Shown here piece after piece: positions 3,623 to 48,080 of a stretch of DNA of 64,000 nucleotides. The translations under genes were made by a program, and so were the position numbers. The notes beneath the pieces are model-generated. The model worked only from the letters and a program-made list of their open reading frames with translations, made no database searches and was not told the origin of the DNA. Positions within the stretch are counted from its first letter, which is position 1. The number at the start of each line of letters is the position of its first letter. The stretch comes from a phage: sequence record PX393110.1; one strand, given 5' to 3'.

Positions 3623-3666
3623 AAAAATAGGCTGTTAACCGAGGGCGTTCCCCAAGTTAACAGCCT
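3623..3666 (-). terminator. hairpin + U-run using the class-1 motif 3' block as its 5' arm
   Basis: AGGCTGTTAAC-N16-GTTAACAGCCT (11 bp) followed by ATTTTTATTT. Confidence 0.4.
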
Positions 3667-3687
3667 TTGGACCGTATTAAACGGCGG
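3657..3687 (-). promoter_or_regulatory. class-1 motif copy 0 (variant)
   Basis: Minus strand CCGCCGTTTAATACGGTCCAAAGGCTGTTAA, about 55 nt before ATG 3601. The upstream stop (3677) lies inside the motif. Confidence 0.5.
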
Positions 3688-4021
3688 CAGTCAGAAAGTT
3701 ACTGGAGATCAGGAAATCATCCAGAGCTACTTCTGTATTCTTAGGAGTATTGTCTAACTCCCACTCACCCACTCCCAGACGGATCTTAGCCACACCAGGA
3801 GCTATCTCTTCAATAGACAGCTTAGAGCCACCGATGATCTGGAGGCGAAGAGCATTTACAGCTACTGCATACCCAGAGAACGCAGTCTCTACCTGGTGAC
3901 GGAACTCCTGGTCTGAATTAACCTTAGCAGCGTAAGCAGCAGGTTCCATACCCAGTTGCTTAGCATACATCAGATGAAACATGTCCAGGTTAATCTTGTT
4001 ACCAGTAGTCTTCTTAGTCAT
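3677..4021 (-). CDS. hypothetical protein
   Basis: ORF track. GAGGAA RBS. Confidence 0.55.
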   Translation of the reverse strand: MTKKTTGNKINLDMFHLMYAKQLGMEPAAYAAKVNSDQEFRHQVETAFSGYAVAVNALRLQIIGGSKLSIEEIAPGVAKIRLGVGEWELDNTPKNTEVALDDFLISSNFLTAAV

Positions 4022-4520
4022 TTTCGATTTCCTCGGCAGTTACGCCAGTGATGTTTAAATACAGATCGGTCGGTAATTCTGGCAGGGTAGAGACATCCAG
4101 ATTCTCTACGTCCTTGGCCAGAGTTATGTGAGGAGAGTATTCCGCACTGATCTCAGACGGTACCTCCCCAGATGCACGGAGTCGATAGTTAAACGATTGT
4201 AGCAGATCGCTATCGAACGCCAGCACCAGGTAGTTAGCATTCTCACCGAAGATCTCATAGCGAGGATTCTTCAGATGAAGTTTGCTACCTACCAGATCAG
4301 CAATAGTTCCCTCATCCGGAGCACCAGTCCCCGGAGCATACATAAGGGTGCAGTGGTTATCGTGACCGGTATCGAAGTTAAGCTTATCATAATCAGCTAC
4401 TTCAGAGATAACCTGCTTAAGATTATCTATCCAGGCATCAGAGTCTGGACAGAATTTTACCGAGGAGTAACCCTCGTCCACGGACTGTACAAGTCCTAAC
4501 ACTACTTCAGCTTTATTCAT
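4014..4520 (-). CDS. 2H-phosphoesterase superfamily protein (LigT / cyclic-nucleotide phosphodiesterase-like)
   Basis: Two H-x-T/S-x motifs about 75 aa apart (NHCTLMY and PHITLAK), about 168 aa long. The ATG at 4520 lies 3 nt after the upstream stop. Confidence 0.55.
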   Translation of the reverse strand: MNKAEVVLGLVQSVDEGYSSVKFCPDSDAWIDNLKQVISEVADYDKLNFDTGHDNHCTLMYAPGTGAPDEGTIADLVGSKLHLKNPRYEIFGENANYLVLAFDSDLLQSFNYRLRASGEVPSEISAEYSPHITLAKDVENLDVSTLPELPTDLYLNITGVTAEEIEND

Positions 4521-4525
4521 TTTTA

Positions 4526-4825
4526 TCACCATGGCCATGGTAGTTTATTTTCGGGCTCCTGCCTATAGTAGGAGCATTTGATACCCAACGATTCCACAAT
4601 ACTTACAGGAATCTTATCAGTTACTTCAGAGTCTTGATAGATTGGTCCGAATACTGATACGTTTGGATCTTGCAACAGTTCAGATATTAATCCAGCCTCT
4701 TCATAAGTCTCGAAGAATGCTGCGGTGGTATCTGGATTACAGCCGAGACCGGTCCATGAGGTGTAAAACTCGTTTACTCCACAGAGAGCACCGTGCTCCT
4801 TATGCACCACTAAAAATCCCAGCAT
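4526..4825 (-). CDS. hypothetical protein
   Basis: ORF track. The start overlaps the RNase H gene end, so the exact start is uncertain. Confidence 0.45.
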   Translation of the reverse strand: MLGFLVVHKEHGALCGVNEFYTSWTGLGCNPDTTAAFFETYEEAGLISELLQDPNVSVFGPIYQDSEVTDKIPVSIVESLGIKCSYYRQEPENKLPWPW

Positions 4826-5330
4826 CTGTGTATCCTTTAAGTTTATTTCTATACTTAACCATTTCCTGCTTAGCTATCTCATCACAGAGATTATTTACTT
4901 TGTAGCGAGGATTATTGAACTTCTGATGACCTTTGACATGCTTAACCTTAATGGACTTAGGGTTAAGATCGCGAAGCATTTCCATATGCTTATCTATGAA
5001 TTCCTTTAATGCCCATTCGCAATCGCATTGGACGACTACCCTAACACCATCGAATGCTGTCTTAGTCATGGCAAACCATAGGGTCTTCATGATCCCTTCT
5101 AGCTCTGCCCAGTTATTATCTACAGCAGTAAATCCTCCGCGAGTTATATGAGCTCGCTGCTCACCAGGAAGACGAATCCATCCTCCGAAACCAGCAGCCT
5201 TACTCTTATGACAGTACGATGCATCTGAGAAGATTGTTATATAGCCCGCAGGGTCCAGACCGCGTTCGGGAGTACCCTCGAAGTGGATAACTCTACCAAC
5301 ATCTTTCTCACCGATAGCATGTTTCTTCAT
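4800..5330 (-). CDS. RNase H (type 1)
   Basis: The DEDD pattern aligns with E. coli RNase HI: FSDAS (FTDGS), AELEGI (MELMAA), QCDCEW (STDSQY), VKGH...NNLCDEIAK (VKGH..NERCDELAR). Confidence 0.75.
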   Translation of the reverse strand: MKKHAIGEKDVGRVIHFEGTPERGLDPAGYITIFSDASYCHKSKAAGFGGWIRLPGEQRAHITRGGFTAVDNNWAELEGIMKTLWFAMTKTAFDGVRVVVQCDCEWALKEFIDKHMEMLRDLNPKSIKVKHVKGHQKFNNPRYKVNNLCDEIAKQEMVKYRNKLKGYTDAGIFSGA

Positions 5331-6898
5331 TACATATCCACCGTAGTTGCCTGGAACAGACCTACCACCATTTCGTGGGACGGCTTCACGACCGGACTAT
5401 CGAAGTCAATAGAGCTGTTGATGTTCTGGTTAACCATCATCAGGCTACGTACTTCCCAGCAAGCACGATCAGTCAGTACACGGTGAATTGCTGCGGTATC
5501 ACCATCCACGTCCATGTTCTGACCACCCATCGCCATCGGAGGAACCTGAATCTCCTTACCCATGTGAGGTCTGACCTTAAATCCCCATACTGAGTAACGG
5601 TGTAGGGATGGCGCACGGTTCATGAATACCGTAGCATTTTCACACAGTCTCCAGCATACTTCCAGAGCTACTCTGGACTTATTCTTGTACATACGCTGTA
5701 CTTTATTGCTGATGTCGTACATGTTGTACCCTTCGTTAGTCGGGCCACCATATAAGTTCTCCAGCTCACCCAGGATGTCTGGCTGAAGTAATTCGTACAT
5801 CATCTTGAACGGTACACCAAGAGTATCCAGAGGAAGATGCGGAGCCGAAGTAACTACAGAACGACCAGAGTAATCAACACGCTTACCTAACAGGTTACCA
5901 CGAATGCGACCACCCTTGCCTTTAAGGTTATTGATCATCGGCTTAATCAAATTACCGCGATAGTCCTTAGTACCTTCCAGGATTAGTCCGTTAACCATCT
6001 TCTGCATTACAATAGATTCACGAGGAATCAGAGATAACAATGCTTCGCTGGCTTCAGCAGTATCACGAATACTTCTGATACGGATTGCATGGCGCAGGAT
6101 TCGCAGGTAGAGTAAGTTAGTCGGATGATACGACATTACCCCATTACTGATACCGACATCACGGTAGCTCGGAGGATTCACCAGTACTGTAGTGTTATAG
6201 AAGTCGCTGAACTCCGTATAACCACTATTGACTACTGTAGGATCTTCACACTCTTCGATATAGGCTTTCATATCGGCGTGGTTAGCTACCAATGCCTGGA
6301 TAAGACTCAGGAGACCTAATTCCGATGACTCATGCTCGGACATACGACGGATCTTAATCATTACTACTGCGAGGCGCTTCGTGCTATCCTGAACTGGGAT
6401 AGTATTAGAGTAGAACATCGCATACTTCTCACGATCTTCATATTCCGGAAGAGCTGCATTAGACTCACGAACCCGCTCCCGATCATCACCAACCATCTTA
6501 GCTGCCAAACCAGCTTCCTGAACTACGAAGCGGTATCTACCGATAAGGAACTGACCGAACTCTCTCTCTGGAAACCCGAATAACGCAGCCATACGTTTGA
6601 TAGCTAATGGATTCACATAAGGAACGATCGTCTCGATGTGACCCATACGGCGGCGACGGGATTCACGATGCATCGCTACCATACCGCATACATTACACGG
6701 AGGAGCTCCCATAACCAGCTGGTTACCACACTCACACTTACCAGTTACCAGAGGTCCGAATATTCGCTGGCAGAATAGCCCACCAGTGAATGGCTTAGGA
6801 TCATGGAACTTAAGATTATACATGCCCATGTTGGTTACTTCACCACTGGACTCGGCACGGATTACAGCATCAGTTGCAATAGATAACTTTAATTTCAT
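5330..6898 (-). CDS. multisubunit RNA polymerase beta-prime, N-terminal half
   Basis: GLFCQRIFGPLVTGKCECGN (Zn ribbon), RRRRMGHIE, NRAPSLHRYSVWGF, and the catalytic loop NMDVDGD (NADFDGD with all three Asp kept). All are collinear with the N-terminal half of bacterial RpoC. Confidence 0.85.
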   Translation of the reverse strand: MKLKLSIATDAVIRAESSGEVTNMGMYNLKFHDPKPFTGGLFCQRIFGPLVTGKCECGNQLVMGAPPCNVCGMVAMHRESRRRRMGHIETIVPYVNPLAIKRMAALFGFPEREFGQFLIGRYRFVVQEAGLAAKMVGDDRERVRESNAALPEYEDREKYAMFYSNTIPVQDSTKRLAVVMIKIRRMSEHESSELGLLSLIQALVANHADMKAYIEECEDPTVVNSGYTEFSDFYNTTVLVNPPSYRDVGISNGVMSYHPTNLLYLRILRHAIRIRSIRDTAEASEALLSLIPRESIVMQKMVNGLILEGTKDYRGNLIKPMINNLKGKGGRIRGNLLGKRVDYSGRSVVTSAPHLPLDTLGVPFKMMYELLQPDILGELENLYGGPTNEGYNMYDISNKVQRMYKNKSRVALEVCWRLCENATVFMNRAPSLHRYSVWGFKVRPHMGKEIQVPPMAMGGQNMDVDGDTAAIHRVLTDRACWEVRSLMMVNQNINSSIDFDSPVVKPSHEMVVGLFQATTVDM

Positions 6899-6913: not shown

Positions 6914-7633
6914 TCAAGGCTTAGCGACGACAGTATAGGCTTCACGAACGATTTCACGAGCTACTTTAGCCGCATGCTGAGTACCACAATACTGATGCAT
7001 GTATTTGAACTGCACAGGTTGCTGCTGGCGAAGATGATTGATATAGCGACGAAGAGTAGGATGGGTGACACTCTGGTCAGCACCACTCACTACCATCATA
7101 AACGCAAACATCTTCAAACTAGCTTCGCGTTTAGCAGGATATTTCTGCATGATGTAATCGATTACACCGTTCACCAGGAGCTTCAGATCACGAGAACGCG
7201 CTATGGGTGATTTCTGGTCTGGGCTAATGGAAGCAGGATCGATTAATTCCACACGACTTTCGCCATCATCGTCCGTTACGAGAGTAGACTCGTTAAAGGA
7301 CATTATGTGACGACGATCCATCGTTTCTTTATCTTCGTGACGAGTATCACCAGTTTTAGCCATATAACCAGTTGGGTTAACTACCCGAAGATACTCATGC
7401 GACACGATAGAGTCGGCAACGTATGGATTATTATTAACACGAGCAATGTTACGGTCTAGCGAACGTAAATCTCCTGAATCTAATGCGCTATCATAGAAGG
7501 ATAAGTCGATGTACTCGTCCCCAGTGTTAGCAATGTTGAATGTTTCATGGAACTTATAGTTAGCGGTCATTGGTCTATCCCAATTAGAGAATTCAAAGAG
7601 CGACCGCGAGGCCGCTCGGTTACCTGCTATCAA
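6914..7633 (-). CDS. hypothetical protein between the two beta-prime halves
   Basis: ORF track. A TTG start overlaps the upstream TGA (alternative ATG at 7570). No motif recognised. Confidence 0.45.
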   Translation of the reverse strand: MIAGNRAASRSLFEFSNWDRPMTANYKFHETFNIANTGDEYIDLSFYDSALDSGDLRSLDRNIARVNNNPYVADSIVSHEYLRVVNPTGYMAKTGDTRHEDKETMDRRHIMSFNESTLVTDDDGESRVELIDPASISPDQKSPIARSRDLKLLVNGVIDYIMQKYPAKREASLKMFAFMMVVSGADQSVTHPTLRRYINHLRQQQPVQFKYMHQYCGTQHAAKVAREIVREAYTVVAKP

Positions 7634-7968: not shown

Positions 7969-8075
7969 AGTATTAGCTCCAAATTAGATTATCCAGTGAA
8001 GCGCTACCGCGCCCCACCCAAAAGAACGGGCTTTATGAGCTCCCAAAAATCGGTTATTTGAAAAATAAATTTCAA
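7969..8075 (-). promoter_or_regulatory. class-2 cassette b
   Basis: Core 8008..8040 TAAAGCCCGTTCTTTTGGGTGGGGCGCG, then hairpin GCGC-GGTA-GCGC, TAATTTGGAGCTAATACT and the ATG. AT-rich inverted repeat upstream. Confidence 0.55.
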
Positions 8076-8776: not shown

Positions 8777-10291
8777 TTATTTGTTATTCAGATTTAACCC
8801 AGCAATGATCATCTCGGAACGGGTTCCGAAGCTAACATCACCATTAAGCACTGCCGAGGTAAGACGCTGCTTAACGTTACCGTGGCCAATAGACTTCAAC
8901 CAGCTAGGGTGCTTCGTAGGGATAGCATCAGCTTTAATCGCCAGTACCTCACCCTTATCACCCATGCTGCGAACACCGATTCGTCCGTTATTCATCTTAA
9001 CCAGATCAGTACAACCACGAGCAATGATCTCATGGTGAATCGATGCGATACCGATACCGATGTCGTCGAAGATGTGCTTAAGCTGGATTGATGCTAGCTC
9101 TGCACCCTTAATAGCCGACCCAGCTTCGTGAGCAAGATCCGTGATGCACTTATACTTAGACTCGGATACCTGAGCTACCGCAGTACCTCTACCACCTACC
9201 GTCTTCAGGATGTCAGCCAAGGTATTACTTACCGAAGTACCGAATTCCTTAAGAGTAGTCGAGCCAGATGTATGCTTACCACGAAGACCAGCCTGGGTAG
9301 ATGGTTCGGAGATATGCTGCGCCGACGCCGTTCCAATACCGAAGTTAATCGGGAAGAAGTTAGCTGGTTTAGCCGGATCCATACCGCAGCAATGCTGACA
9401 TACCCCACCCTTAGTCGATTCACAGGTAATCGGGCTAAGGACTTTAACGTTACCCTCTTCATCAGCTAACTGATCAACATTCTCCTTAGTGATCAGTACT
9501 CGATCATTAGTGAATCGATACAGTGCCGATTTCTTAGGTAGGGTAATCACTTCCTTAGTTCCGCAATCTTCTTCCACAATAGACAGCTCACGAGAGCAGT
9601 TAACCAGCTGACGAGCGAACCAGCCAGTCGCAGGTACCAGGAAGAAGTTACCAGCCAGACCCTTACGAGCAGGTCCGCAGGTGTTGAAGTAGTTGATAGG
9701 AGACAACCCGGAGCTTAAGTTCTCCATAATCGGCATCGGCATGATCTTACCAGTCATACCTACCAGAAGACCCTTAGCTACTACCATCGAGCGAACCTGG
9801 GGAGGAGATACACGAGCGCCAGATACACCCATCGCATACAGAGGATTATGACGGTCTACCTCTTTGAACCAGCGATCAGTACATTCGTTGATCACCTTAT
9901 CAGCAGCCACCAGACGATCCTCGTACTTCATCTTACCGAGTTCCTGGGTCATTGATGGGAAGTCGATACCGAAGTCAAACTTAGTGTCGTCATAGCACAA
10001 GCTAAGTCCAGACATAGTTGCTTTATGGAACCCGAACTGCTGCAACTTATGGAGTCTACGCCCAGCTACTTCCGGAGTGTAGTTATTATTGATGTGAGAG
10101 ACGATCTTCGCAGATTCCTTCTTATCGATTTCTTTTTCTGGAAGATAGCCACTGATTTCCCAAATAAACAGTCGACCGATAGTAGTTTCTTTAGGACCAT
10201 CAGAGAAGTAAAAACGCACCGGAGTGGTGTAGGTTGCTTCTTTCATATCAATAAGACGGTGTAATTCATTCAAGGACTTTGATACGATCAT
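8777..10291 (-). CDS. multisubunit RNA polymerase beta-prime, C-terminal half
   Basis: TTIGRLFIWEI, GLSLCYDD, SGARVSPPQVRSMV, bridge-helix-like CGPARKGLAGNF..TGWFARQLVN, EEDCGT, GVCQHCCG, trigger-loop-like AQHISEPSTQ, and C-terminal EMIIAGLN. All are collinear with the C-terminal half of RpoC. Confidence 0.85.
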   Translation of the reverse strand: MIVSKSLNELHRLIDMKEATYTTPVRFYFSDGPKETTIGRLFIWEISGYLPEKEIDKKESAKIVSHINNNYTPEVAGRRLHKLQQFGFHKATMSGLSLCYDDTKFDFGIDFPSMTQELGKMKYEDRLVAADKVINECTDRWFKEVDRHNPLYAMGVSGARVSPPQVRSMVVAKGLLVGMTGKIMPMPIMENLSSGLSPINYFNTCGPARKGLAGNFFLVPATGWFARQLVNCSRELSIVEEDCGTKEVITLPKKSALYRFTNDRVLITKENVDQLADEEGNVKVLSPITCESTKGGVCQHCCGMDPAKPANFFPINFGIGTASAQHISEPSTQAGLRGKHTSGSTTLKEFGTSVSNTLADILKTVGGRGTAVAQVSESKYKCITDLAHEAGSAIKGAELASIQLKHIFDDIGIGIASIHHEIIARGCTDLVKMNNGRIGVRSMGDKGEVLAIKADAIPTKHPSWLKSIGHGNVKQRLTSAVLNGDVSFGTRSEMIIAGLNLNNK

Positions 10292-11817: not shown

Positions 11818-11941
11818 AATTAGCTCCAAATTATAACGAACCGTGAAGCGGCCAACCCGCCCCACCCAAAAGAACGGGCTTTAGGACCTCTCAGAGTTCG
11901 TTTTATTTTTCAAAAACATTTCAATAATGAAAAATATTTTT
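11818..11941 (-). promoter_or_regulatory. class-2 cassette d
   Basis: Core 11857..11887 TAAAGCCCGTTCTTTTGGGTGGGGCGG, then hairpin GCGG-GTTGG-CCGC and TAATTTGGAGCTAATT. 12-bp AT inverted repeat ATTTTTCAAAAA/TTTTTGAAAAAT upstream. Confidence 0.55.
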
Positions 11942-11965
11942 GAAAAATAGGCCATCCTTGGCCTA
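11942..11965 (-). terminator. intrinsic terminator
   Basis: UAGGCCA-AGGA-UGGCCUA followed by UUUUUC, 6 nt after the stop at 11971. Confidence 0.6.
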
Positions 11966-11970: not shown

Positions 11971-13422
11971 TCAGCGAGCTTTGCTGATTGCCTGGGTAAT
12001 ACGTTGGGACTGTTTACGCCAGGATTGCTGCAGACGAGGATTAAGCTTCATGATTACAGACATAATCATGGCCAGTACTCCACGCTTAGCCTTAGGACTA
12101 CCAGACTTAGCATCCTTCAGGTATTTACGAGCCACAGTTTTAATATCCTGGGATGGCCAGGTCTTAACGACTGGTGACTTAACCTGCTTAGCCAGCGCTA
12201 CGAAGATGACCAGAGTGCTGATAAGGTCGGAGGTACGTACAGAACCTTTACCGCCCATCAGTACTTCGATAACCTTGTTAACGCGACGGAGCACTTCCGA
12301 CGGAGCCGCTTCGTCTACTCCCTCAGGCATAGCCGTACTCTCAGCAGCAGATAGCTTCCAGGAGTTAGCAGTAGCCATATCGGTAGTGTAGCATGCGGAC
12401 AGATCATCGTCGGATGCTTCGGACAGATTCATGAACTCGTTCTTAGTCGGGTTCCAAACCATGTCCTTGTACTTAATGTACCAGCGACCACCATCGTCTT
12501 TGATCATATCAGGGACTTCTCCCTTAGACAGATCTTCGTTGACAGATCGTCCCATCAACCAGCGGTAAACAGGTTTCAGATCCCAGCGACCGTCAGGAGT
12601 AACCTTCACATCCTGGCCAGTCAGATCCTTAATTACCTGAGTTACGTTATCGCCAGTCTGGTTGATCTTATGGTTAGTCACCAGCTGCGCTACGGACTTC
12701 TTATTACCCTGATCGTCGGTACGTTCTGCACCACGTAAGATCATGGTGGAGTTAATCTGGTCCATAGTGAATCCAGCATCGATAAGACGCTTGATCTGAG
12801 CCATGACCTGATCATACTCCTTCGGTAGATCGTCCACAAACTCGTTGAGCTGCAGACCAGCACCACTCGTCATGCTACCACGACCTGCCGCATCACCAGT
12901 AATCAATCGGGCAATTACCACTAGCTTAGAGCTGGAAGATAGTTTAGGATGGTTGATAAACTTATCTAAAAAATCGTTTATCGTAGTGATCTCTTCAGGG
13001 TTATTATTTCTGTTGCTGGCAGCCAACTCTGTGAACATACCCATAGCAGAACCATCCGGAGTCTCATAAGCATCCATCATGTTCAGCTGGGTAGAGCCAC
13101 CTTCGCCATCTTCCGCAAAGAATGCATCAGCAGAGAACGTACCAGAACGAACTTCTTTCTGTACGAACTCTCGTAGCAAATTCTTAGCCATCTGCTGGGG
13201 CATCATCATAAGATAAGAATAGTAGTCACGCAGGTTAGCATCACTGGTATTCTGCATCTTGCGGAACATAGTATACCATTGACTGCTCTTACCATTCTTC
13301 TCGATGTCAGCGACAGCGTGATCAATCATACGCTGGTCGATGAAACGCTCTACCGAGGCTAGATCCTCGTCCACTATTTGTTCACTCATCAACAGAGTGA
13401 GTAAATTTTGGGCCTTAGTCAT
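11971..13422 (-). CDS. hypothetical protein (483 aa)
   Basis: ORF track. The ATG at 13422 has a GGAG RBS. A terminator hairpin follows the stop. No motif recognised. Confidence 0.6.
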   Translation of the reverse strand: MTKAQNLLTLLMSEQIVDEDLASVERFIDQRMIDHAVADIEKNGKSSQWYTMFRKMQNTSDANLRDYYSYLMMMPQQMAKNLLREFVQKEVRSGTFSADAFFAEDGEGGSTQLNMMDAYETPDGSAMGMFTELAASNRNNNPEEITTINDFLDKFINHPKLSSSSKLVVIARLITGDAAGRGSMTSGAGLQLNEFVDDLPKEYDQVMAQIKRLIDAGFTMDQINSTMILRGAERTDDQGNKKSVAQLVTNHKINQTGDNVTQVIKDLTGQDVKVTPDGRWDLKPVYRWLMGRSVNEDLSKGEVPDMIKDDGGRWYIKYKDMVWNPTKNEFMNLSEASDDDLSACYTTDMATANSWKLSAAESTAMPEGVDEAAPSEVLRRVNKVIEVLMGGKGSVRTSDLISTLVIFVALAKQVKSPVVKTWPSQDIKTVARKYLKDAKSGSPKAKRGVLAMIMSVIMKLNPRLQQSWRKQSQRITQAISKAR

Positions 13423-13458
13423 TATTTTCTCCAATATGTCGACATAAAAGGATGATGA

Positions 13459-14184: not shown

Positions 14185-14200
14185 AATATTCTCCGCTTAG

Positions 14201-14234
14201 AATAAAATGGGCTAGATGGTGAAGCGGCACCATC
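14201..14234 (-). terminator. promoter-proximal hairpin + U-rich tract
   Basis: GATGGTG-CCGCTT-CACCATC, then TAGCCCATTTTATT. It lies between class-1 copy 1 and ATG 14184. Confidence 0.35.
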
Positions 14235-14263
14235 AGGGGAGCTACCCTTTTCGCCCAAACACT

Positions 14264-14294
14264 TTAACAGCCTTTCGAGTCATCAAAAGAGCGG
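14264..14294 (-). promoter_or_regulatory. class-1 motif copy 1
   Basis: CCGCTCTTTTGATGACTCGAAAGGCTGTTAA, 79 nt before ATG 14184 and 2 nt after the upstream stop. Confidence 0.6.
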
Positions 14295-14296
14295 TT

Positions 14297-14566
14297 TTAT
14301 CGAATTAGCCCATACTTCCATGCCATTACATGCGCAGGTTCGTTATGAGCGAAGAATGCGGTACCCTTCTTGGTAGTAAGCACCAAACACGGCTTATTTC
14401 CCATCATATCAGCCATGCTAGCTACCACAGTCTTCTCAGACCCAGGCTTAGCCGGATCAATGCCCATAGCTATTTTATGAGCAGTTGTCTTACCAGGACG
14501 TCTCGGATTAGATACCAAGACTTTAGGGGAGGTCTTTCGGCCACCCTTACGCTGCTTTCTCGCCAT
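14297..14566 (-). CDS. small basic hypothetical protein
   Basis: ORF track. Lys/Arg-rich N-terminus. Overlaps the polymerase stop by 20 nt. Confidence 0.45.
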   Translation of the reverse strand: MARKQRKGGRKTSPKVLVSNPRRPGKTTAHKIAMGIDPAKPGSEKTVVASMADMMGNKPCLVLTTKKGTAFFAHNEPAHVMAWKYGLIR

Positions 14567-17844: not shown

Positions 17845-17898
17845 AAAAATAAACCTCCGCCAATTTAACAGCCTTTTAGGCCGCTAAAAAGGCGGAGG
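17845..17898 (-). terminator. hairpin enclosing class-1 copy 2, followed by U-run
   Basis: CCTCCGCC...GGCGGAGG followed by TTTATTTTT, just before the polymerase RBS. Confidence 0.35.
17865..17895 (-). promoter_or_regulatory. class-1 motif copy 2
   Basis: CCGCCTTTTTAGCGGCCTAAAAGGCTGTTAA, 30 nt before the polymerase ATG 17834. Flanked by the 8-bp inverted repeat CCTCCGCC/GGCGGAGG. Confidence 0.6.
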
Positions 17899-21396: not shown

Positions 21397-21415
21397 GTAA
21401 TTTCTCCTAAGTTAC

Positions 21416-21448
21416 AAAAATAAAGGTATGGAAGTTGCCTCCCACACC
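21416..21448 (-). terminator. promoter-proximal hairpin + U-run
   Basis: GGTGTGG...CCATACC followed by TTTATTTTT. The stem is 7 bp with one G-U pair that is valid only in minus-strand RNA. Confidence 0.4.
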
Positions 21449-21479
21449 TTAACAGCCTTTCGAGCCCTAAAAAGAGCGG
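21449..21479 (-). promoter_or_regulatory. class-1 motif copy 3
   Basis: CCGCTCTTTTTAGGGCTCGAAAGGCTGTTAA. It abuts the upstream stop (21480) and lies 52 nt before ATG 21396. Confidence 0.6.
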
Positions 21480-22553
21480 TTATTCCAGAATAAACGGAGA
21501 CTTATCCCCGAGGCGGTTCGCGACCCATTTCACGAATGGTGAATTAACCAGATGCTCGCACTGGATAGACATGTGAGCTCCAGTAGTCTTACATAGATAA
21601 TGAGCGCCTGCTAACCACATCATCACATCCAGAGTTGATCCTGGTTGGAACTCTCGACCAACATCTTCCATTACGTATTCTAGAATACTGTGATCGCTAT
21701 TATAACGAGAAGCAGCATCTTCAAGAGTAGCGATGTAATGCTGGAAGTAGGTACGGATCTTATACCAGGAATTAAGTGATCCGAGATCAATCGTAGTTAC
21801 CGGAGCTTCATTAATGTCGTCAACATAAGCTCGGATATTACTTACCTGCTTCTTGATGTTCGACACTTCCGGATACCAGTGGAGATCATCCGTCATCACC
21901 ACATAGTTGCCCATATCTACTTTGAGCATAGTTGCGATGATTTCCTGGATGATCGTGAACTCCACCAGATTAACGTTAGTCAATCCCCAGATTAGATCAT
22001 TACTACGGTTGAATACCGTGCAGTCCAGACCACCATTACGGTACTTAAACGATAGAGCAATGTTGCAGATCATATCTGCGGTATTGATGCTGCCAATGCT
22101 GTTTACCAGACCTACATCAGAATCACGGCTGGGATCGTGAATAGTAGCCACGCACTTACGGTTACCCAGGTCAGAACGGAGGCGGTCTGTTACAGTCTGG
22201 AGTTGATCGTAGTTATACAGACGCTCACCGTAAGCACCACGCCAGGTAACCATATCATCGCTAAACATCTTAGCGCGAGGAACCATAATCGACATCCAGT
22301 TATCGATTGCATAGCCACCAGACAGTACCCACAATACTTCCCCCATAATTCCGAGGATATTGTCTTTACGTTCTGGATGAGCCATCCAACGATTAATCGG
22401 ATTACTTAACTCAACTACAGCATGACCGATGGATACTACCGCCGAAGAGTTAACAGAAGTTCTGGACTTCTGCAACTCACCAGCCTTATCCATAGTATTG
22501 ATGCTGTTAACCAGGATTTCAGTATTACTGTTACCGCGAATTACCGAGATCAT
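21480..22553 (-). CDS. thymidylate-synthase-family pyrimidine dNMP hydroxymethylase/methylase homologue
   Basis: GEVLWVLSGG (ELLWFLQGD), YGERL, DQLQTVTDRLRSD..NRK (DQI..V...L..DP.SRR), catalytic-Cys segment DMICNIALSF, and NRSNDLIWGL (ThyA QRSCDVFLGL; T4 gp42 MRSNDVVFGF), DDLHWY. Extra C-terminal extension of about 100 aa. Confidence 0.7.
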   Translation of the reverse strand: MISVIRGNSNTEILVNSINTMDKAGELQKSRTSVNSSAVVSIGHAVVELSNPINRWMAHPERKDNILGIMGEVLWVLSGGYAIDNWMSIMVPRAKMFSDDMVTWRGAYGERLYNYDQLQTVTDRLRSDLGNRKCVATIHDPSRDSDVGLVNSIGSINTADMICNIALSFKYRNGGLDCTVFNRSNDLIWGLTNVNLVEFTIIQEIIATMLKVDMGNYVVMTDDLHWYPEVSNIKKQVSNIRAYVDDINEAPVTTIDLGSLNSWYKIRTYFQHYIATLEDAASRYNSDHSILEYVMEDVGREFQPGSTLDVMMWLAGAHYLCKTTGAHMSIQCEHLVNSPFVKWVANRLGDKSPFILE

Positions 22554-25412: not shown

Positions 25413-25440
25413 ATTTAATTTCTCCGTAGGCTGTCACAAT

Positions 25441-25470
25441 GTAACAGCCTTTTAGCTCATCAAAGAAGCG
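25441..25470 (-). promoter_or_regulatory. class-1 motif copy 5 (variant)
   Basis: CGCTTCTTTGATGAGCTAAAAGGCTGTTAC, 28 nt before ATG 25412. The upstream stop lies inside the motif. Its 3' block forms the hairpin AGGCTGT/ACAGCCT. Confidence 0.5.
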
Positions 25471-27112: not shown

Positions 27113-27129
27113 TATTAATCCTCGCTACA

Positions 27130-27163
27130 CAAAAATGGGGTTAGGCCGTAGAGACCTAACCCC
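27130..27163 (-). terminator. promoter-proximal hairpin + U-run
   Basis: GGGGTTAGG-N9-CCTAACCCC followed by ATTTTTG. It lies between class-1 copy 6 and ATG 27112. Confidence 0.45.
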
Positions 27164-27179
27164 GTACGCCTCTGACACC

Positions 27180-27210
27180 TTAACAGCCTTTTAGGTCATC
27201 AAACAGGCGG
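27180..27210 (-). promoter_or_regulatory. class-1 motif copy 6
   Basis: CCGCCTGTTTGATGACCTAAAAGGCTGTTAA, 67 nt before ATG 27112. The BCCT stop lies inside the motif. Confidence 0.55.
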
Positions 27211-28581: not shown

Positions 28582-28584
28582 TGA

Positions 28585-30404: not shown

Positions 30405-30434
30405 CCAAAAATTAGGGTGACCGAAGTCACCCTA
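30405..30434 (-). terminator. intrinsic terminator (UUCG tetraloop)
   Basis: UAGGGUGAC-UUCG-GUCACCCUA followed by AUUUUUGG, 6 nt after the topoisomerase stop. Confidence 0.7.
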
Positions 30435-34236: not shown

Positions 34237-34354
34237 GATTTTATCCCAAATTAGAAGAGCCGCAGCGGGAACGCCCCGCCACCCAAAAGAACGGGCTTAA
34301 AGACGGCTCATAAATCGTTTTATTTTTCATTATTTGAAAAATAAAATAATCTAC
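34237..34354 (-). promoter_or_regulatory. class-2 cassette e
   Basis: Core 34272..34304 TTAAGCCCGTTCTTTTGGGTGGCGGGGCG, then hairpin GCGGG-GCGTT-CCCGC and TAATTTGGGATAAAATC. AT inverted repeat TTTTATTTTTCA/TGAAAAATAAAA upstream. Confidence 0.55.
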
Positions 34355-34380
34355 ACAAAAATGGGGTCCGAAGACCCCAT
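34355..34380 (-). terminator. intrinsic terminator (UUCG tetraloop)
   Basis: AUGGGGUC-UUCG-GACCCCAU followed by UUUUGUG, 5 nt after the SbcCD-like stop. Confidence 0.7.
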
Positions 34381-34384
34381 CTAA

Positions 34385-38020: not shown

Positions 38021-38049
38021 CAAAAATAAAGGGACCGAAGTCCCTTTAT
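38021..38049 (-). terminator. intrinsic terminator (UUCG tetraloop)
   Basis: AUAAAGGGAC-UUCG-GUCCCUUUAU followed by UUUUUG, after the SSB-like gene. Confidence 0.7.
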
Positions 38050-38060: not shown

Positions 38061-39095
38061 TTATTTACGGAATTTGGCGAAGCGAGAGGCAGCACCACCT
38101 TCTTCTTTGTCTTCGTCAGACTTATCGTCGCCGGCATCTTCAGTTTTATCTTCAGATTTGGCGTCAGATTTGTCGTCAGCAGCGTCTTCTTTAGACTCGC
38201 CTTTATCTTCAGACTTATCTTCGGCAGAGCTCGCGTCGGACTTAACATCAGACTTAGCGTCAGATTTGTCGTCGGCTTTCTGATCACCGGACTCTTCCTT
38301 AGATTCTTCGGCCTTAGCCTCTTCTTCAGCTTTAAGCTCTTCGAAGCCATCTTCGCCAACCAGCGGCAGACCTTTAGCCTTACGCTGGGAACGAATTTCG
38401 TCCAGATCTTTACGGACACGCTTGACCAGACCTACGTATTTGTCTTTGTCGAAGCCTTCACGGATGTACGCCTGAGCCAGCGGCTGGTAGGTCTGATCTG
38501 CAACTACCGGATCAGCTTTGCTGAACAGCGGAGTGAAGGTTACAGAACCCTGATTACCACGTACTACGGTAATCTTAACCGGAGAGCCTTTGATGTCTTT
38601 ATCCAGCATACCTTCCAGAACTTCCGGAGAGTCTTCCGCCAGCGCCGTAATGAAGTCGGTCAGTGCGTTAGCCACCTTACCGTTACCGATCACCGCATAC
38701 AGAGTATTCGGCTTCCAGTTATCAGACGGAGTGTCGGTTTTCTGCAGGAAGAAGTAGAACAGGATGTTGTACTTCAGACCGTATTTCCAGTGATTGTATT
38801 CGTTCAGCTCGTCGAGCATGTCATCCAGCTCGGCATAGTTGAAGTTTTCCGGCAGATCTTCACAGTCGGACGGAGTCTGAATACCATAGCTGAAGTAACC
38901 GTGAGTACGGACTTCACGATACAGGTTACCGACGGGGTCAGTTATGATACGACCCTGATGGCTACCTTCCGGAAGGAAAGTCGCGTTAGGGAAGTTACCG
39001 GTACCACCGGATTTCTCTTTACGCTCTTTCATTTTACCTGCGAGGGCTTTGATACCAGCTACGTCTAACTTCTTAACTTGAACTTGTTCAGTCAT
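38061..39095 (-). CDS. probable single-stranded DNA-binding protein with acidic low-complexity tail
   Basis: Strongly optimised codons. Sits in the replication/recombination block. The C-terminal ~90 aa is D/E/K/S-rich (KSDAKSDVKSD...), like the acidic tails of phage SSBs. No sequence identity established. Confidence 0.5.
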   Translation of the reverse strand: MTEQVQVKKLDVAGIKALAGKMKERKEKSGGTGNFPNATFLPEGSHQGRIITDPVGNLYREVRTHGYFSYGIQTPSDCEDLPENFNYAELDDMLDELNEYNHWKYGLKYNILFYFFLQKTDTPSDNWKPNTLYAVIGNGKVANALTDFITALAEDSPEVLEGMLDKDIKGSPVKITVVRGNQGSVTFTPLFSKADPVVADQTYQPLAQAYIREGFDKDKYVGLVKRVRKDLDEIRSQRKAKGLPLVGEDGFEELKAEEEAKAEESKEESGDQKADDKSDAKSDVKSDASSAEDKSEDKGESKEDAADDKSDAKSEDKTEDAGDDKSDEDKEEGGAASRFAKFRK

Positions 39096-39156
39096 CTTTG
39101 TGATCTCTATTTAAACAATGTTTTAACAATCTTAATCAGAGTTGCCCTCTGACACC

Positions 39157-39187
39157 TTAACAGCCTTTCGACCCTCCAAAAGAGCGG
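39157..39187 (-). promoter_or_regulatory. class-1 motif copy 10
   Basis: CCGCTCTTTTGGAGGGTCGAAAGGCTGTTAA, 61 nt before the SSB-like ATG 39095. Confidence 0.6.
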
Positions 39188-44988: not shown

Positions 44989-45349
44989 TGTCTAGCTCCT
45001 CTTTTATAGTATGATCTTTGTACATTCTTAAACTATACGGGTTCTCTATCTCTTCGAATTGAAGACCATCGAATCCATGTATCATGTTAGCGAATCGCAT
45101 ATTATACATGGTAATCCTGATCTGCCAAATCATAGAATTAGAGGCTTTACGGAATACTTTACACGGCTCACTAACTACAGCACCCTGGATCTTCTTTAGC
45201 TCGTTAACGATGTTCGACACATCTTCAAGTTCGCAATATGACTGAAAGATCCGTGATGGACATCGTCTTATTTGACTAACGTCTGAACCATACATAATTT
45301 TTACACAACGAGTAGATTGAACACAGAAGGACGTTGGATACGCCTCCAC
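44978..45349 (-). CDS. hypothetical protein (start uncertain)
   Basis: ORF track. A GTG start lies 4 nt after a class-1 motif. The alternative ATG at 45295 lacks a clear RBS. Confidence 0.35.
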   Translation of the reverse strand: MEAYPTSFCVQSTRCVKIMYGSDVSQIRRCPSRIFQSYCELEDVSNIVNELKKIQGAVVSEPCKVFRKASNSMIWQIRITMYNMRFANMIHGFDGLQFEEIENPYSLRMYKDHTIKEELDNAL

Positions 45350-45353
45350 CGCT

Positions 45354-45384
45354 TTAACAGCCTTTTAGGTCATTAAAACGGCGG
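45354..45384 (-). promoter_or_regulatory. class-1 motif copy 12
   Basis: CCGCCGTTTTAATGACCTAAAAGGCTGTTAA, 8 nt after the GT32 stop. Confidence 0.55.
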
Positions 45385-45392
45385 AGTTCAGA

Positions 45393-46184
45393 TCAATACC
45401 GTGGGTCGGTATCCTGATAATCGCGAATCAAGTCATAGACGAGCACATCCAGACGAGTAGCATCTTCACGCTTCATGCGGGTAGGTCTGTACATATGAAT
45501 ACATACACAGTGCTTAGACCATACCTTAGCAGTCTGACGTTCCGTAAGTTCTTTACGGTCGACGATGTACTTCTCGAATGCGTGATAAGAGATAGGCTTT
45601 GATACTTCGATATATTGGCACATATCGAGGAATTGCGGGTAGTCGTCAGTCAGGTAACGACTGAATACATCCTGGTAATAGGAGTAGTTAGGGAACTTAC
45701 CACCATTTTCCAGAGATAAAGCATGAGTCTCTATCTCCTTCAGCATCAGAGACATGAATGCCTGATTATTGCTGGGGGAGGTCCACATGTTGATTTCGCA
45801 GTAGTCTAACCGAGGGGAATAAACGCGTACCTGAGTCTCGTGAGGAGTGTAGGTTTCGTGAGGGCTTCGGATAAAGAGTGTATCAGCATCAACATAGGAG
45901 TAACCACGAAGATCCATCATTACCTGAATCTTGAGTCGCAGGTAATCACATACAGAGGCCATCTTAGCCTTAGTCTTCAGGATATTATACGCTTTCTCCA
46001 TGATAGGATCTCTGGCGAATAAATCCTGGATCATAATGCATCGGCACCCTTCGATAATGTTTTCAGTATTATCGATCACCAGCACATGGTCCTTAGGTCC
46101 ATATTTCTGTAAGGATTTAATGCATTCCCGAACATGGATAGGCATCTTTGGTCCTACCCAAAGCTGGAAATAATTCTGACTCAT
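45393..46184 (-). CDS. GT32-like (DXD, Gly_transf_sug-type) glycosyltransferase
   Basis: QLWVGPKMP..., MASVCDYLRLKIQVMMDLRGYSYVDADTLF (family pattern SD..R...L...GG.Y.D.D). GAGGT RBS. Confidence 0.55.
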   Translation of the reverse strand: MSQNYFQLWVGPKMPIHVRECIKSLQKYGPKDHVLVIDNTENIIEGCRCIMIQDLFARDPIMEKAYNILKTKAKMASVCDYLRLKIQVMMDLRGYSYVDADTLFIRSPHETYTPHETQVRVYSPRLDYCEINMWTSPSNNQAFMSLMLKEIETHALSLENGGKFPNYSYYQDVFSRYLTDDYPQFLDMCQYIEVSKPISYHAFEKYIVDRKELTERQTAKVWSKHCVCIHMYRPTRMKREDATRLDVLVYDLIRDYQDTDPRY

Positions 46185-46818
46185 AGTTACCTCTATGTTA
46201 TTTATTTTAAACTGGATAGGGACCTAATAGAGTAAATTAGTAAATAAATACTTATTAGTTACCTCTTACCTATGCTAAGGGAAGCGTACTCGAGGAGTAC
46301 AGAGGCTTAGCGAAAGAGCGGAGTAACACCTTTATCCCAATTAGTCAAAGTAGAGAGCGAAGGAGTCGCGCCCGCTTGAGGCGGCGCGACCTCCGCTTCA
46401 CCAATCCTACCGGATGAGCGCCTGCGACCACCCGAGCCTACCCCTGCATCACTCTCTAAAGCCACTTCGGGCTTTACCTCGTTCTGCTACGCGATACGCA
46501 GGCGATAGCTACACTAAGTCCCCTGGAGATGGCTAGTAAGCATCCGCTACCAGTCATATCCAACCTAACATTGGCGAAGCCAGGGACTAGGCACTCCGCG
46601 CCAATAAGCTACATTAGGATTTATGTCCGTATTCGAAGATAGGCCGATCGGTGAGACTATGCATTCATCTCTGCTCAACCAGGAAGCGCCGATTAGGGTA
46701 AATACCCAAACTACCTTCTTAATGTCACTCCTCCCAGACCGCTTCGGGACTTAGCTTAAGTCATATCCGAATAATCTGGCATCTACGACGGACCGTAGTG
46801 TATGGAGCGTACTGCAAT
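46185..46818 (-). other. 634-nt ORF-free, highly structured leader / candidate large ncRNA
   Basis: No ORF of 60 aa or more on either strand. A class-1 motif sits at its 5' end. Contains many GC-rich helices (details in findings). Confidence 0.35.
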
Positions 46819-46848
46819 TTAACAGCCTTTCGATTCATCAAAAGAGCG
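46819..46848 (-). promoter_or_regulatory. class-1 motif copy 13
   Basis: CGCTCTTTTGATGAATCGAAAGGCTGTTAA. It points into about 630 nt of ORF-free sequence before ATG 46184. Confidence 0.55.
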
Positions 46849-46982
46849 TAATTAGGGACCCGATTATTCCACTTAGCTGCCATCCGTTCGGGTCAACACA
46901 GATCGTTCCAGGTCTTAGGCATCATACCAGACCGTTTCAGTACACTCGGATTATTAGTTCCCGGTGACCATTTAAAGATGGT

Positions 46983-47055
46983 GGCCCATACTGGTTTCGA
47001 ACCAGTGACCAATCGATTATGAGTCGACTGCTCTCACCACTGAGCTAATGGGCCG
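46983..47055 (-). tRNA. tRNA with CAU anticodon (Met elongator or Ile2/lysidine type)
   Basis: Hand-folded cloverleaf: acceptor GGCCCAT/ATGGGCC, D arm GCTC..GAGC, anticodon arm GTCGA-CTCATAA-TCGAT, T arm ACTGG-TTCGAAA-CCAGT, discriminator A. CCA is not encoded. Confidence 0.85.
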
Positions 47056-47199
47056 AACTGGTCGGGACCGTGGCCCACACTAGAGGATTTGCCAAACTCC
47101 CCATTATCATGGCCTAAGCCATCCAGACAGCCGTGACTACCCTGCTCCGGTACATGTGATAATGGGGACGTATCCAAAAATGTGGAGATCCCGTTAAGG
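47056..47199 (-). other. 144-nt structured inter-tRNA spacer
   Basis: 11-bp stem CCCCATTATCA (47100-10) / TGATAATGGGG (47158-68) enclosing the hairpin ATGGC-CTAA-GCCAT. No T-loop, so it is not a tRNA. Confidence 0.4.
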
Positions 47200-47276
47200 T
47201 GGTACTCCCTACAGGATTCGAACCTGTGACCAATAGCTTAGAAGGCTACTGCTCTATCCAGCTGAGCTAAGGGAGC
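47200..47276 (-). tRNA. tRNA-Arg (UCU)
   Basis: Hand-folded cloverleaf: acceptor GCTCCCT/AGGGAGT, D arm GCTC..GAGC, anticodon arm GTAGC-CTTCTAA-GCTAT, T arm ACAGG-TTCGAAT-CCTGT, encoded CCA. Confidence 0.85.
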
Positions 47277-47457
47277 TTATTAATTCTTCTACCTGCTTAA
47301 CAGATTTATTCATGCCTGTTCCGTGACACTCCCCGCAGACCCAAGTCCGACAGAAGATATCACCAGGCTCAGCATCGTCACACTCTCCTAAACCTCCACA
47401 TTCTGGACATTTAGCTTCATTAACAATACTTCTTAGCTTATGAAAAGTAGTTTCCAT
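47254..47457 (-). CDS. DnaJ-type zinc-finger mini-protein
   Basis: Two CxxCxGxG repeats (CPECGGLG, CGECHGTG) plus CRTWVC. GGAGG RBS. The last 23 nt overlap the 5' part of tRNA-Arg. Confidence 0.55.
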   Translation of the reverse strand: METTFHKLRSIVNEAKCPECGGLGECDDAEPGDIFCRTWVCGECHGTGMNKSVKQVEELISSLSSAG

Positions 47458-47473
47458 AAATCCTCCATTTTAG

Positions 47474-47541
47474 GATGACCTCTTAGCTTACCATCGCGAA
47501 AAGCTACATGGAGTGTAGTTAACGTGAACTAAGAGGTCATC
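47474..47541 (-). repeat. 13-bp perfect inverted repeat between two small genes
   Basis: GATGACCTCTTAG (47474-86) / CTAAGAGGTCATC (47529-41), with the inner hairpin CTACA-TGGAG-TGTAG. It ends 5 nt before the GGAGG RBS of ORF 47254..47457. Confidence 0.5.
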
Positions 47542-47547
47542 ATAAAA

Positions 47548-47649
47548 TCAGCTATTGAAAGCTAATATAATACTGTCCCAACCATCTACATAAATTGCGT
47601 TGGCTACATATAATACGAAGAATATAGCAACGACTATTGGATTAATCAT
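47548..47649 (-). CDS. 33-aa single-pass membrane peptide
   Basis: Internal ATG of ORF 47548..47757 with an AGGAG RBS: MINPIVVAIFFVLYVANAIYVDGWDSIILAFNS (hydrophobic helix). Confidence 0.4.
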   Translation of the reverse strand: MINPIVVAIFFVLYVANAIYVDGWDSIILAFNS

Positions 47650-47989
47650 CGTACTCTCCTGAGAAATATTATCCTGCTTACTGTTACAGGGACGCCGTTC
47701 GTCGCGCCAGATTACCAATCGGCGATTAAGCCGATCTCGCCAACCGCGTAACGCCATTGGCTGGTATCACATAGGCTTGTAGCCCTCAGTCAACCTGTCC
47801 TGAGGAGGTAGGAAGAGCCATACGCCAAATCCGGGATTGATAGTCCCATATAGCTTCCTACTTTGCCATTCTCGTATGGCCTCGGATACGACTGTCTCTG
47901 GGTAAGGAGTCCCGACAGCTGATACGGTTTAGTTTATTTTTAATTTGAGTCCCACTCATACCTTACAGACTCAAGCACTGCAGACCACC
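47650..47989 (-). other. ORF-free structured region upstream of the membrane-peptide gene
   Basis: Long-range 8-bp stem GCCATACG/CGTATGGC (47817-24 / 47873-80). Hairpins ATCGGC/GCCGAT, CCTCAG/CTGAGG and CTGTC/GACAG. Confidence 0.3.
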
Positions 47990-48019
47990 GAAAAACCGAC
48001 TGGTACGCTAGCAGTCGGT
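47990..48019 (-). terminator. intrinsic terminator about 30 nt downstream of class-1 copy 14
   Basis: ACCGACUG-CUAGCGUAC-CAGUCGGU followed by UUUUCGG. Confidence 0.55.
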
Positions 48020-48046
48020 CCCACGGATCCCATGAACAACTTATGA
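47990..48046 (-). ncRNA. candidate ~55-nt small RNA (class-1 motif to terminator)
   Basis: Bounded by class-1 copy 14 and the terminator at 47990..48019. The only ORF inside is 20 codons with no RBS. Confidence 0.25.
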
Positions 48047-48050
48047 CAAT

Positions 48051-48080
48051 TTAACAGCCTTTCGAGTCATCAAAAGAGTG
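48051..48080 (-). promoter_or_regulatory. class-1 motif copy 14
   Basis: CACTCTTTTGATGACTCGAAAGGCTGTTAA, followed about 30 nt later by a hairpin plus U-run. Confidence 0.55.

Follow-up and report, generated by a model that had tools for sequence, protein, structure and literature searches.

Sequence record PX393110.1 holds the 64,000-nucleotide (nt) stretch of phage DNA analyzed here (the window). Our subject is a set of hairpins, several of them followed by a run of T, that stand directly behind a promoter-like motif or are built from it, between positions 3,623 and 48,080. These promoter-associated hairpins are functional RNA elements, real and non-random. The window is ~90% identical to Escherichia phage vB_EcoM_IME392 (IME392; 116 kb) and to EP_H11, and is that of an IME392-like coliphage. 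Early, replication, and nucleotide-metabolism genes form a minus-strand module at 1-50239, and a structural module occupies the plus strand from 50364 onward.

The class-1 motif and its hairpins

With at most one mismatch, AGGCTGTTAA occurs 27 times in the window (3.4 expected). Nineteen minus-strand copies align without gaps and in a fixed register, and their conservation extends over ~46 nt, from -25 to +21 (position 1 is the A of AGGCTGTTAA). The layout of this class-1 motif has two boxes: CCGC-TCTTTT, a variable spacer, and TCGAA-AGGCTGTTAA, followed by T13, an invariant G14, and A19. Scored with a position weight matrix (PWM), the 19 copies reach 42-63 bits, the rest of the window at most 15, and shuffled sequence at most 10.9. 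PWM scans identified 25 copies in IME392 and 24 in EP_H11; in these genomes and the window, all copies are on the early strand and none lies in the structural module. The copies are intergenic, co-oriented with the genes, and placed at a fixed short distance 5' of a ribosome-binding site (RBS), and some precede tRNAs. Ab1-TPeters, a distant relative (Acinetobacter host, 37% GC) whose RNA polymerase (RNAP) beta-prime subunit is 38% identical, carries a homolog of this two-box element, whose core reads AAA[AG][GC]CTGTT..TGT. Conservation, intergenic placement, co-orientation, and a fixed RBS distance are the sequence hallmarks of a phage-specific promoter, and from position and orientation we infer that the 46-nt motif is an early/middle promoter of this phage clade.

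Positions 5-13 of the motif (TGtTAAagT) look like an extended -10 element, with A19 as a possible start. We did not adopt the sigma70 promoter as the identity of the motif: there is no TTGACA-like -35, the TAnnnT shape is kept in only ~60% of the Ab1-TPeters copies, and a scan for sigma70-like promoters (1-60000, both strands) gave no more matches than shuffled sequence. Two of its three 20-kb segments hold fewer consensus matches than shuffles, 19 versus 34.3 (standard deviation 6.2) and 25 versus 33.6 (standard deviation 6.9), a deficit that may reflect avoidance of host-type promoters. We also rejected the motif as an RNA-structure family. Folded alone, only 2 of the 19 copies do better than shuffles (site 17865, z = -9.0; site 45354, z = -6.6; the other 17, z > -2.7), and the spacer is not generally complementary to the core.

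Using two scans, with all coordinates re-checked, we found a hairpin with an adjacent T-run at 6 of the 19 copies (0, 1, 2, 3, 6, and 14). These sites, and the hairpins that lack a T-run, are as follows.

3646..3691, minus strand: class-1 motif copy 0 (site 3657), core AGGCTGTTAA at 3657-3666, PWM 42.7 bits; the stop codon of the upstream open reading frame (ORF) 3677-4021 lies within the motif.
3619..3666, minus strand: copy 0 hairpin (3666-3629) with the motif core as its 5' arm, -24.6 kcal/mol, then the T-run ATTTTTATTT (3628-3619).
14253..14298, minus strand: class-1 motif copy 1 (site 14264), PWM 58.7 bits.
14200..14257, minus strand: branched structure of copy 1 (14257-14208), an outer stem GGGC/GCCC around two hairpins (a three-way junction), then TTTTATTC.
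17845..17898, minus strand: hairpin of copy 2 (site 17865; 17898-17854), which is also the motif copy itself and spans motif -24 to +21 (a whole-promoter hairpin), -32.7 kcal/mol, z = -9.0, then TTTATTTTT.
21414..21450, minus strand: copy 3 hairpin (21450-21423; motif 21438-21483, site 21449), motif +9 to +36, -17.6 kcal/mol, then TATTTTT.
27128..27163, minus strand: copy 6 hairpin (27163-27137; motif 27169-27214, site 27180), motif +27 to +53, -19.4 kcal/mol, then ATTTTTGTG.
47988..48026, minus strand: region of the copy 14 hairpin (48018-47996; motif 48040-48085, site 48051), then TTTTT; in an ORF-free region 5' of tRNA-Arg.
25428..25450, minus strand: copy 5 hairpin (site 25441) with the motif core as its 5' arm, without a T-run.
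45344..45386, minus strand: copy 12 whole-promoter hairpin (site 45354), -23.9 kcal/mol, four G:U pairs, z = -6.6, without a T-run.
48869..48898, minus strand: 13-bp hairpin after the copy at 48898, +10 to +39, without a T-run; differences between genomes are confined to its loop.
39136..39152, minus strand: short hairpin after the copy at 39157, +15 to +31, without a T-run.

An earlier note on this DNA, made from its letters alone, had described a stable hairpin and U-run between motif and RBS at copies 0, 1, 2, 3, 6, and 14. All six were recovered, with two corrections: copy 1 is a three-way junction and no simple hairpin, and copy 14 has neither an RBS nor an ORF behind it, lying in a 2-kb ORF-free region with two tRNAs. 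Its remaining structural observations were borne out. The core is the 5' arm at copies 0 and 5 (3666-3629 and 25450-25428, the latter without a T-run), G-U pairing in minus-strand RNA occurs at copy 3 through two pairs (G14:U31 and G18:U27), and copy 8 has the conventional order, with a terminator at 30434-30413 and then the core at 30371-30362.

At 3666-3629, 17898-17854, 21450-21423, and 27163-27137 the stem is followed after a gap of 0-2 nt by a T-run, with 5-7 T in the next 8 nt, as in intrinsic terminators; the same arrangement is seen less cleanly at 48018-47996 and 14257-14208. The promoter-associated hairpins also lie in sense orientation, 3' of a stop codon, as terminators do.

Structure, selection, and placement of the hairpins

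As controls we used 150 random same-strand windows, mostly coding sequence. Overall stability did not differ between motif sites and these controls (Mann-Whitney p = 0.24), and the distribution is bimodal. Seven of the 19 motif windows fall under the control 5th percentile (P = 2.3e-5) and five under the 1st (P = 1e-6). Four of the 19 motif sites, versus 3.3% of controls, have a hairpin no weaker than -12 kcal/mol together with five or more T in 8 nt (P = 0.003). Likewise in Ab1-TPeters, 5 of 19 motif windows are under the control 5th percentile, and in three of those five the core is the 5' arm. The hairpins are strand-specific: in eight of nine the sense RNA is 2-10 kcal/mol more stable than the antisense, with 1-4 G:U pairs, and conventional terminators are symmetric in this respect. 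A DNA cruciform or palindromic protein-binding site was rejected as the principal explanation, given that the G:U pairs favor sense RNA by this amount.

Relatives provided covariation sets that are small (3-5 distinct sequences each). In three lineages the 21449-type hairpin begins between +9 and +11, and its stem has four positions with compensatory double changes, none broken, with the T-run kept. At the 17865-type site, three substitutions in relative L016 change the spacer at -11 to -8 from AGCG to GGTA, and all still pair with the invariant core; in EP_H11, +16 changes from C to T opposite G-19. The 45354 site likewise has T or C at +16, opposite G-19, among three genomes. Compared with EP_H11, the 48051 stem shows two compensatory double changes and one wobble change, and the 27180 hairpin is retained in L018 with U:A changed to U:G. 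The promoter at the PIG-L junction of L019 and L020 also forms a whole-promoter hairpin, and motif position +10 takes part in a compensatory change there, from T:A to C:G. IME392, L016, and L017 each carry a hairpin of their own at the 14264-type junction, with starts between +10 and +18. Compensatory changes thus preserve the stems, and the hairpins are therefore under selection. Stem conservation as expected of an intrinsic terminator is seen for the 21449-type, 17865-type, and 48051 hairpins and for the terminator after the topoisomerase IV-A gene. Together with the tail statistics, the covariation led us to reject a chance origin.

Sixteen copies have an upstream gene. For 12 of them, the end of that gene's stop codon falls between -16 and +4 nt relative to motif position -25, and the spacer consensus TTTTGATGA often provides that stop codon. 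Gaps of at least 22 nt occur only at 30362, 29521, and 23305, and at the first two a hairpin precedes the motif. Where the stop codon abuts or lies within the motif, the terminator of that gene therefore has no place except behind the next promoter or overlapping it. Hairpin starts lie 9-40 nt past the upstream stop codon, a normal distance for a 3' untranslated region (UTR). One terminator varies with its upstream gene: that of 27180 is present where a gene for a BCCT-family transporter lies upstream (window, IME392, EP_H11, and L018) and missing from L019 and L020, whose promoter-PIG-L junction is without BCCT, so this hairpin tracks the upstream unit.

Whether a hairpin can also form in RNA begun at its own motif depends on the start site, for which there are three candidates. 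Position A10/A11 is suggested by the hairpins that begin at +9 to +11 and by copy 50244, the first putative promoter of the module, whose sole Shine-Dalgarno sequence is at +17 to +21. G14 is invariant in class 1, in a second motif class (class 2, described below), and in Ab1-TPeters, and A19 is consistent with sigma70-like spacing. From +10, +14, or +19 the 3657 and 17865 hairpins are unable to form in promoter-initiated RNA. The 21449 hairpin is intact from +10, weakened and separated from its T-run by a 5-nt gap from +14, and absent from +19; the 14264 structure is intact from +10 and +14; and the 27180 and 48051 hairpins are intact whichever candidate (+10 to +19) is the start. At 3657 and 17865, and at the T-run-less sites 25441 and 45354, the 5' arm is promoter DNA upstream of any plausible start, so these hairpins would form only in read-through RNA. 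By candidate starts, the six T-run sites would comprise two read-through-only terminators, two start-dependent ones, and two that must also attenuate their own promoter.

Interpretation and alternatives

We favor, with modest confidence, the reading that the hairpins serve the upstream unit, as its terminators or 3'-end hairpins, and that tight packing has interleaved them with the promoter that follows, with leader attenuation as a side effect where the two are not nested. Specifically, hairpins with T-runs would be Rho-independent-type terminators that end the upstream transcription unit, and those without would be 3'-end or processing hairpins. The promoter of the next unit would start within the final codons of the gene before it or right at them, and the terminator would lie behind that promoter or be built from it because tight genome packing puts the next promoter at the upstream gene end. 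At the nested sites (3657 and 17865 with a T-run; 25441 and 45354 without), upstream-derived RNA would fold the hairpin and stop, and RNA begun at the embedded promoter would lack the 5' arm and escape. At the non-nested sites (27180 and 48051, and 14264 and 21449 depending on the start site) the hairpin would also lie within the leader of the new transcript, where it would be expected to cause leaky attenuation and the release of a ~30-70 nt leader RNA. More generally, a gene that overlaps the next promoter would push its own terminator behind or into that promoter, and the effect on the new transcript would be set only by where the start falls relative to the 5' arm. Promoter-proximal terminators mapped in several phages are usually seen as leader attenuators or sources of small RNAs, and for some of them this may offer a simpler account.

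Several observations weigh against this reading. Strong hairpins without a T-run, at 45354, 48898, 25441, and the PIG-L junction of L019 and L020, are not classical terminators, and IME392 lacks the 48051 T-run though it keeps the stem. At 27180 and 48051 a full terminator would stand in the promoter's own leader from any plausible start, an order that packing alone leaves unexplained, and essential genes 3' of these two sites would have to rely on leakage. The link between BCCT and the 27180 terminator involves just two independent lineages per side, and the composition of the control windows is a further weakness. Promoter function, start-site position, and termination itself are predicted from sequence. 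Finally, searches for an RpoB-like or sigma70-like ORF in the window, IME392, and Ab1-TPeters (all ORFs searched by phmmer with the E. coli proteins RpoB and RpoD as queries; the neighbors of the RNAP genes compared with Pfam, PHROGs, and PDB sequences) returned none. The beta subunit could be very diverged, or the phage beta-prime could pair with host subunits.

The closest precedents for a different view are the leader terminators of Pseudomonas phages, measured in phiKZ, PAK_P3, and 201phi2-1 (PMC10914365, PMC11512511). Six phages have 42 terminators in 5' UTRs directly 3' of promoters, 81% with bimodal long and short output, and phiKZ T102 aborts >90% of transcripts to give a 71-nt RNA (PMC10914365); in 201phi2-1, 8 of 11 small RNAs arise from 5' UTR terminators, one of them just 5' of a tRNA, like copy 14 (PMC11512511). 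The likeness to the window is in the intrinsic-type hairpin and U-run between a phage-specific promoter and the first start codon, as at T102/P112, and in an own multisubunit RNAP. Those sites were mapped by ONT-cappable-seq and are described as leader elements, whereas ours are known from sequence alone, and the available text mentions neither promoter-derived hairpin arms nor overlap with the upstream stop codon. The T-run hairpins of the window might, by analogy, be primarily leader attenuators, with most motif-started RNAs aborting into abundant short, perhaps regulatory RNAs and read-through conditional on infection time or on a factor. We consider this unlikely as the general explanation. 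The hairpins do lie between motif and start codon, and placement wholly in the leader would apply at 27180 and 48051 for any start from +10 to +19, at 21449 and 14264 for some, and at 3657 and 17865 for none. Of the attenuators that need an antiterminator, as proposed in the earlier note, the part that survives is a plausible role at 27180, 48051, and probably 14264 and 21449: the first three are intact in their own transcripts from +10 or +14 and the last from +10, and L019 and L020 carry a hairpin at +16, with ATTTTGG, after a 23305-type promoter. Attenuation is inapplicable at 3657 and 17865, where the 5' arm lies upstream of the plausible starts, and the 27180 terminator follows the upstream BCCT gene and not the downstream PIG-L leader. 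No antiterminator family was recognized among the ~35 window proteins scanned (many small ORFs were outside the scan).

That note had also raised protective 5' stem-loops. The late region of phage T7, as Dunn and Studier reportedly described in 1983, has promoters followed by RNase III stem-loops, and a 5' stem-loop in the gene 10 leader. T7 shares with the window the order of promoter, stable hairpin, U-rich leader, and RBS, and its hairpins act on upstream read-through RNA to give similar mRNA ends for each gene; it differs in its single-subunit RNAP and in hairpins that are RNase III substrates without terminator T-runs and do not derive from promoter sequence. It is improbable that the hairpins of the window are chiefly 5'-terminal protective stem-loops of their own mRNA, like that of the gene 10 leader, with the T-rich tract serving as an A/U-rich translation enhancer before the Shine-Dalgarno sequence. 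Such a role is plausible for the T-run-less hairpins at 48898 and 39157 and for the class-2 element (these begin at +10 to +16, the conserved class-2 hairpin at +16); 5' arms start within the narrow range of +9 to +18 in the window, L016, L017, and Ab1-TPeters; and the T-run, where present, is always just before the RBS. Protection fails where the 5' arm is the core or the upstream box (3657, 17865, 25441, 45354, and the L019/L020 junction). The 27180 hairpin begins 13-17 nt from the plausible 5' ends, which is too far for protection by a 5' stem-loop stabilizer, and the stem with a directly adjacent T-run at 21449, 27180, 3657, and 17865 has every sequence feature of an intrinsic terminator, an arrangement enriched at 4 of 19 sites versus 3.3% of controls.

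The first explanation of the earlier note, that the hairpins stop host RNAP reading through from early regions while a phage RNAP that starts at the motif ignores intrinsic terminators, found no support, and we regard it as very improbable. The phage does encode its own beta-prime, and the motif is unlike a sigma70 consensus promoter. The window scan turned up no outstanding sigma70-type promoters, however, and every unit of the 50-kb module, including those with the RNAP genes, uses the class-1 motif or the related second motif, so no separate host-transcribed region feeds the hairpins. With the RNAP genes behind the same motifs, the enzyme that reads them must already be present at infection. 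Conventional terminators inside the motif-driven units are conserved while their stems covary; every lineage has one at an unchanged position behind the topoisomerase IV-A gene, with four different stems. The enzyme that transcribes the module therefore appears to respond to intrinsic terminators, and the phage beta-prime, ~31% identical to bacterial beta-prime over its full length, is bacterial in type. Least probable of all, in our view, is that the motif is no promoter and instead an RNA processing site, cut in polycistronic RNA by a phage or host endoribonuclease, with the hairpins protecting the new ends. The whole-promoter hairpins at 17865 and 45354 are ~19-20 bp, long enough for RNase III, and the start sites assigned to the motif are candidates only. 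Two boxes around a spacer of variable sequence and fixed length are nonetheless typical of DNA recognition, only 2 of the 19 copies alone fold as RNA, nothing lies upstream of the module's first copy (50244) that could be processed there, and copies also precede tRNAs.

Returning to termination of the upstream unit as the preferred reading, the nested hairpins resemble ordinary terminators that overlap the next promoter, and they are also akin to the T7 pairs of promoter and RNase III site. They share with Rho-independent terminators a GC-rich stem, a short loop, a T-run 0-2 nt on, the coding strand, a position 9-40 nt past the stop codon, and covarying stems; the difference is that here the next promoter lies between stop codon and hairpin, or forms the hairpin. 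The usual order, terminator and then promoter, is found only at 30434 and before the class-2 elements. Lambda pR'-tR' with Q is alike in having a strong terminator close 3' of a promoter and downstream expression that needs read-through, and it differs in that a lambda genome has a single promoter of this kind, along with a Q-binding element and a pause that depends on sigma; the window has about six sites, and no Q-type component was identified in it. In N4, promoters for the virion RNAP can likewise form hairpins, but every early promoter has a small one (5-7 bp stem, 3-nt loop) that is required for recognition. We rejected an N4-type DNA hairpin promoter for the window, where only 17865 and 45354 fold and the G:U pairs indicate RNA.

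Overall, the arrangement would be a compact version of the promoter and terminator signals usual in phages and not a new mechanism, and its novelty is modest. The unusual part is the whole-promoter-in-hairpin module and the dual selection on the promoter spacer. A bolder proposal, which we find possible though rather doubtful, is that promoter-in-terminator modules are one-way insulators and a design principle of the clade: an incoming polymerase would fold the promoter RNA into a terminator to which a polymerase from the embedded promoter is immune. If so, each short unit would be governed by its own promoter alone, at zero cost in genome length, and the spacer and flanks would be selected both as promoter DNA and as an RNA hairpin arm. 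Whole-promoter hairpins, preserved by compensatory changes in the putative promoter spacer, are single sequences selected as DNA signal and as RNA structure, and hence compact insulator parts of possible use in synthetic biology. Those without a T-run occur at 45344-45386 in the window, ~8120-8157 in L019, and ~7393-7431 in L020, and their pairing too is maintained by compensatory substitutions; possible roles are RNase III sites, 3'-end stabilizers, or stops that need no U-run.

Other elements of the module

Conventional terminators and the split beta-prime genes of the early module are listed here.

30413..30434, minus strand: conventional cUUCGg terminator 5' of motif copy 8 (core 30371-30362), then ATTTTTGG; at the same position in L018, L019, and L020, with different stems.
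34360..34381, minus strand: conventional cUUCGg terminator, then a class-2 element at 34298.
11948..11965, minus strand: conventional terminator, then a class-2 element at 11881.
38027..38048, minus strand: conventional cUUCGg terminator after ORF 38061-39095.
5330..6898, minus strand: N-terminal half of the phage RNAP beta-prime (Pfam RNA_pol_Rpb1_1 and _2; phmmer versus E. coli RpoC, 6.7e-52).
8777..10291, minus strand: C-terminal half of the phage RNAP beta-prime (Pfam RNA_pol_Rpb1_3, _4, and _5; phmmer, 1.2e-25).

Among the conventional terminators, those at 2540-2557, 30413-30434, 34360-34381, and 38027-38048 (minus strand) have a 7-9 bp stem and a cUUCGg tetraloop; the promoter-associated hairpins have other loops, plus G:U pairs.

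The class-2 element is a conserved, intergenic sequence of ~110 nt, found on the minus strand at 34283-34298, 11866-11881, 8018-8033, and 2908-2923, each together with ~60 nt of flank on both sides. In order, it consists of an AT-rich TTATTTTTCAAATAAACGATTTTTGA, CCTAAAGCCCGTTCTTTTGG, a hairpin GTGGGGCG..CGCTTCAC with a covarying stem, CTAATTTGGAG, and ATG. There are four in the window (0.5 expected) and five per full genome, and the element is also present in L017 and L019 (in L019 as AAGCGAGTTCTTTTGG). Its core aligns with the class-1 core, T13-G14 being common to both. Class-2 elements follow conventional terminators and precede units with the two beta-prime genes, and they probably represent another class of promoter, one whose leader hairpin is fixed. 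In Ab1-TPeters, two upstream-box classes are joined to a common core, aaCTCaaaaTTGAsyy (17578, 18258, 19511, and 62052) and CCTGTtTCTTAA (7860, 24449, 36945, 43225, 51656, 62164, and 65069). This suggests two temporal promoter classes read via the shared core element.

The relatives have a single copy of each beta-prime half per genome. A 239-amino-acid (aa) unannotated protein (6914-7633) adjoins the N-terminal half in both the window phage and Ab1-TPeters, and a conserved 487-aa unannotated protein (11971-13434), with four homologs in its alignment, is near the C-terminal half in Ab1-TPeters. Homologs of the PIG-L protein and of the 487-aa protein led to the intermediate relatives; viral and metagenome contigs searched with beta-prime yielded no relatives, and a motif pattern scan of viral contigs gave four single matches, the chance level. 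The window encodes a 5-hydroxymethyldeoxyuridine DNA kinase (23362-24333), and the phage DNA therefore carries hypermodified thymidine, in accord with the grouping of IME392 with YerA41, RP13, and Carin-5 (PMC12686479). The clade, made up of non-jumbo phages that have both hypermodified thymidine and a split beta-prime, is little studied; the searchable literature holds no description of promoters, start sites, terminators, or transcription for IME392, YerA41, or their relatives.

The stretch around copy 14 has no ORFs for 2 kb (46184-48269) and contains tRNA-Met (46979-47054) and tRNA-Arg (47200-47276). Four class-1 copies would feed it (48291, 48233, 48051, and 46819), two of them in tandem, 58 nt apart, and the unit from copy 48051 to its own hairpin would yield a ~55-nt small RNA. 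In Rfam, only the two tRNAs reached the gathering score in the whole window, and nothing credible appeared at E values up to 1 in 46100-48950. Elsewhere on the minus strand, the ORF at 4014-4538 matches the anti-CBASS protein Acb1 in Pfam (E = 2.7e-6; 27.6 bits against a 27-bit cut-off) and would be a candidate counter-defense gene. A two-gene cassette at 27199-29493 (minus strand) encodes a 302-aa protein and the BCCT-family transporter, unusual cargo in a lytic phage. L018 shares the cassette with the window, IME392, and EP_H11, and L019 and L020 lack it; it has the look of an inserted unit that includes a motif copy of its own (29521) and the terminator at 27163-27137.

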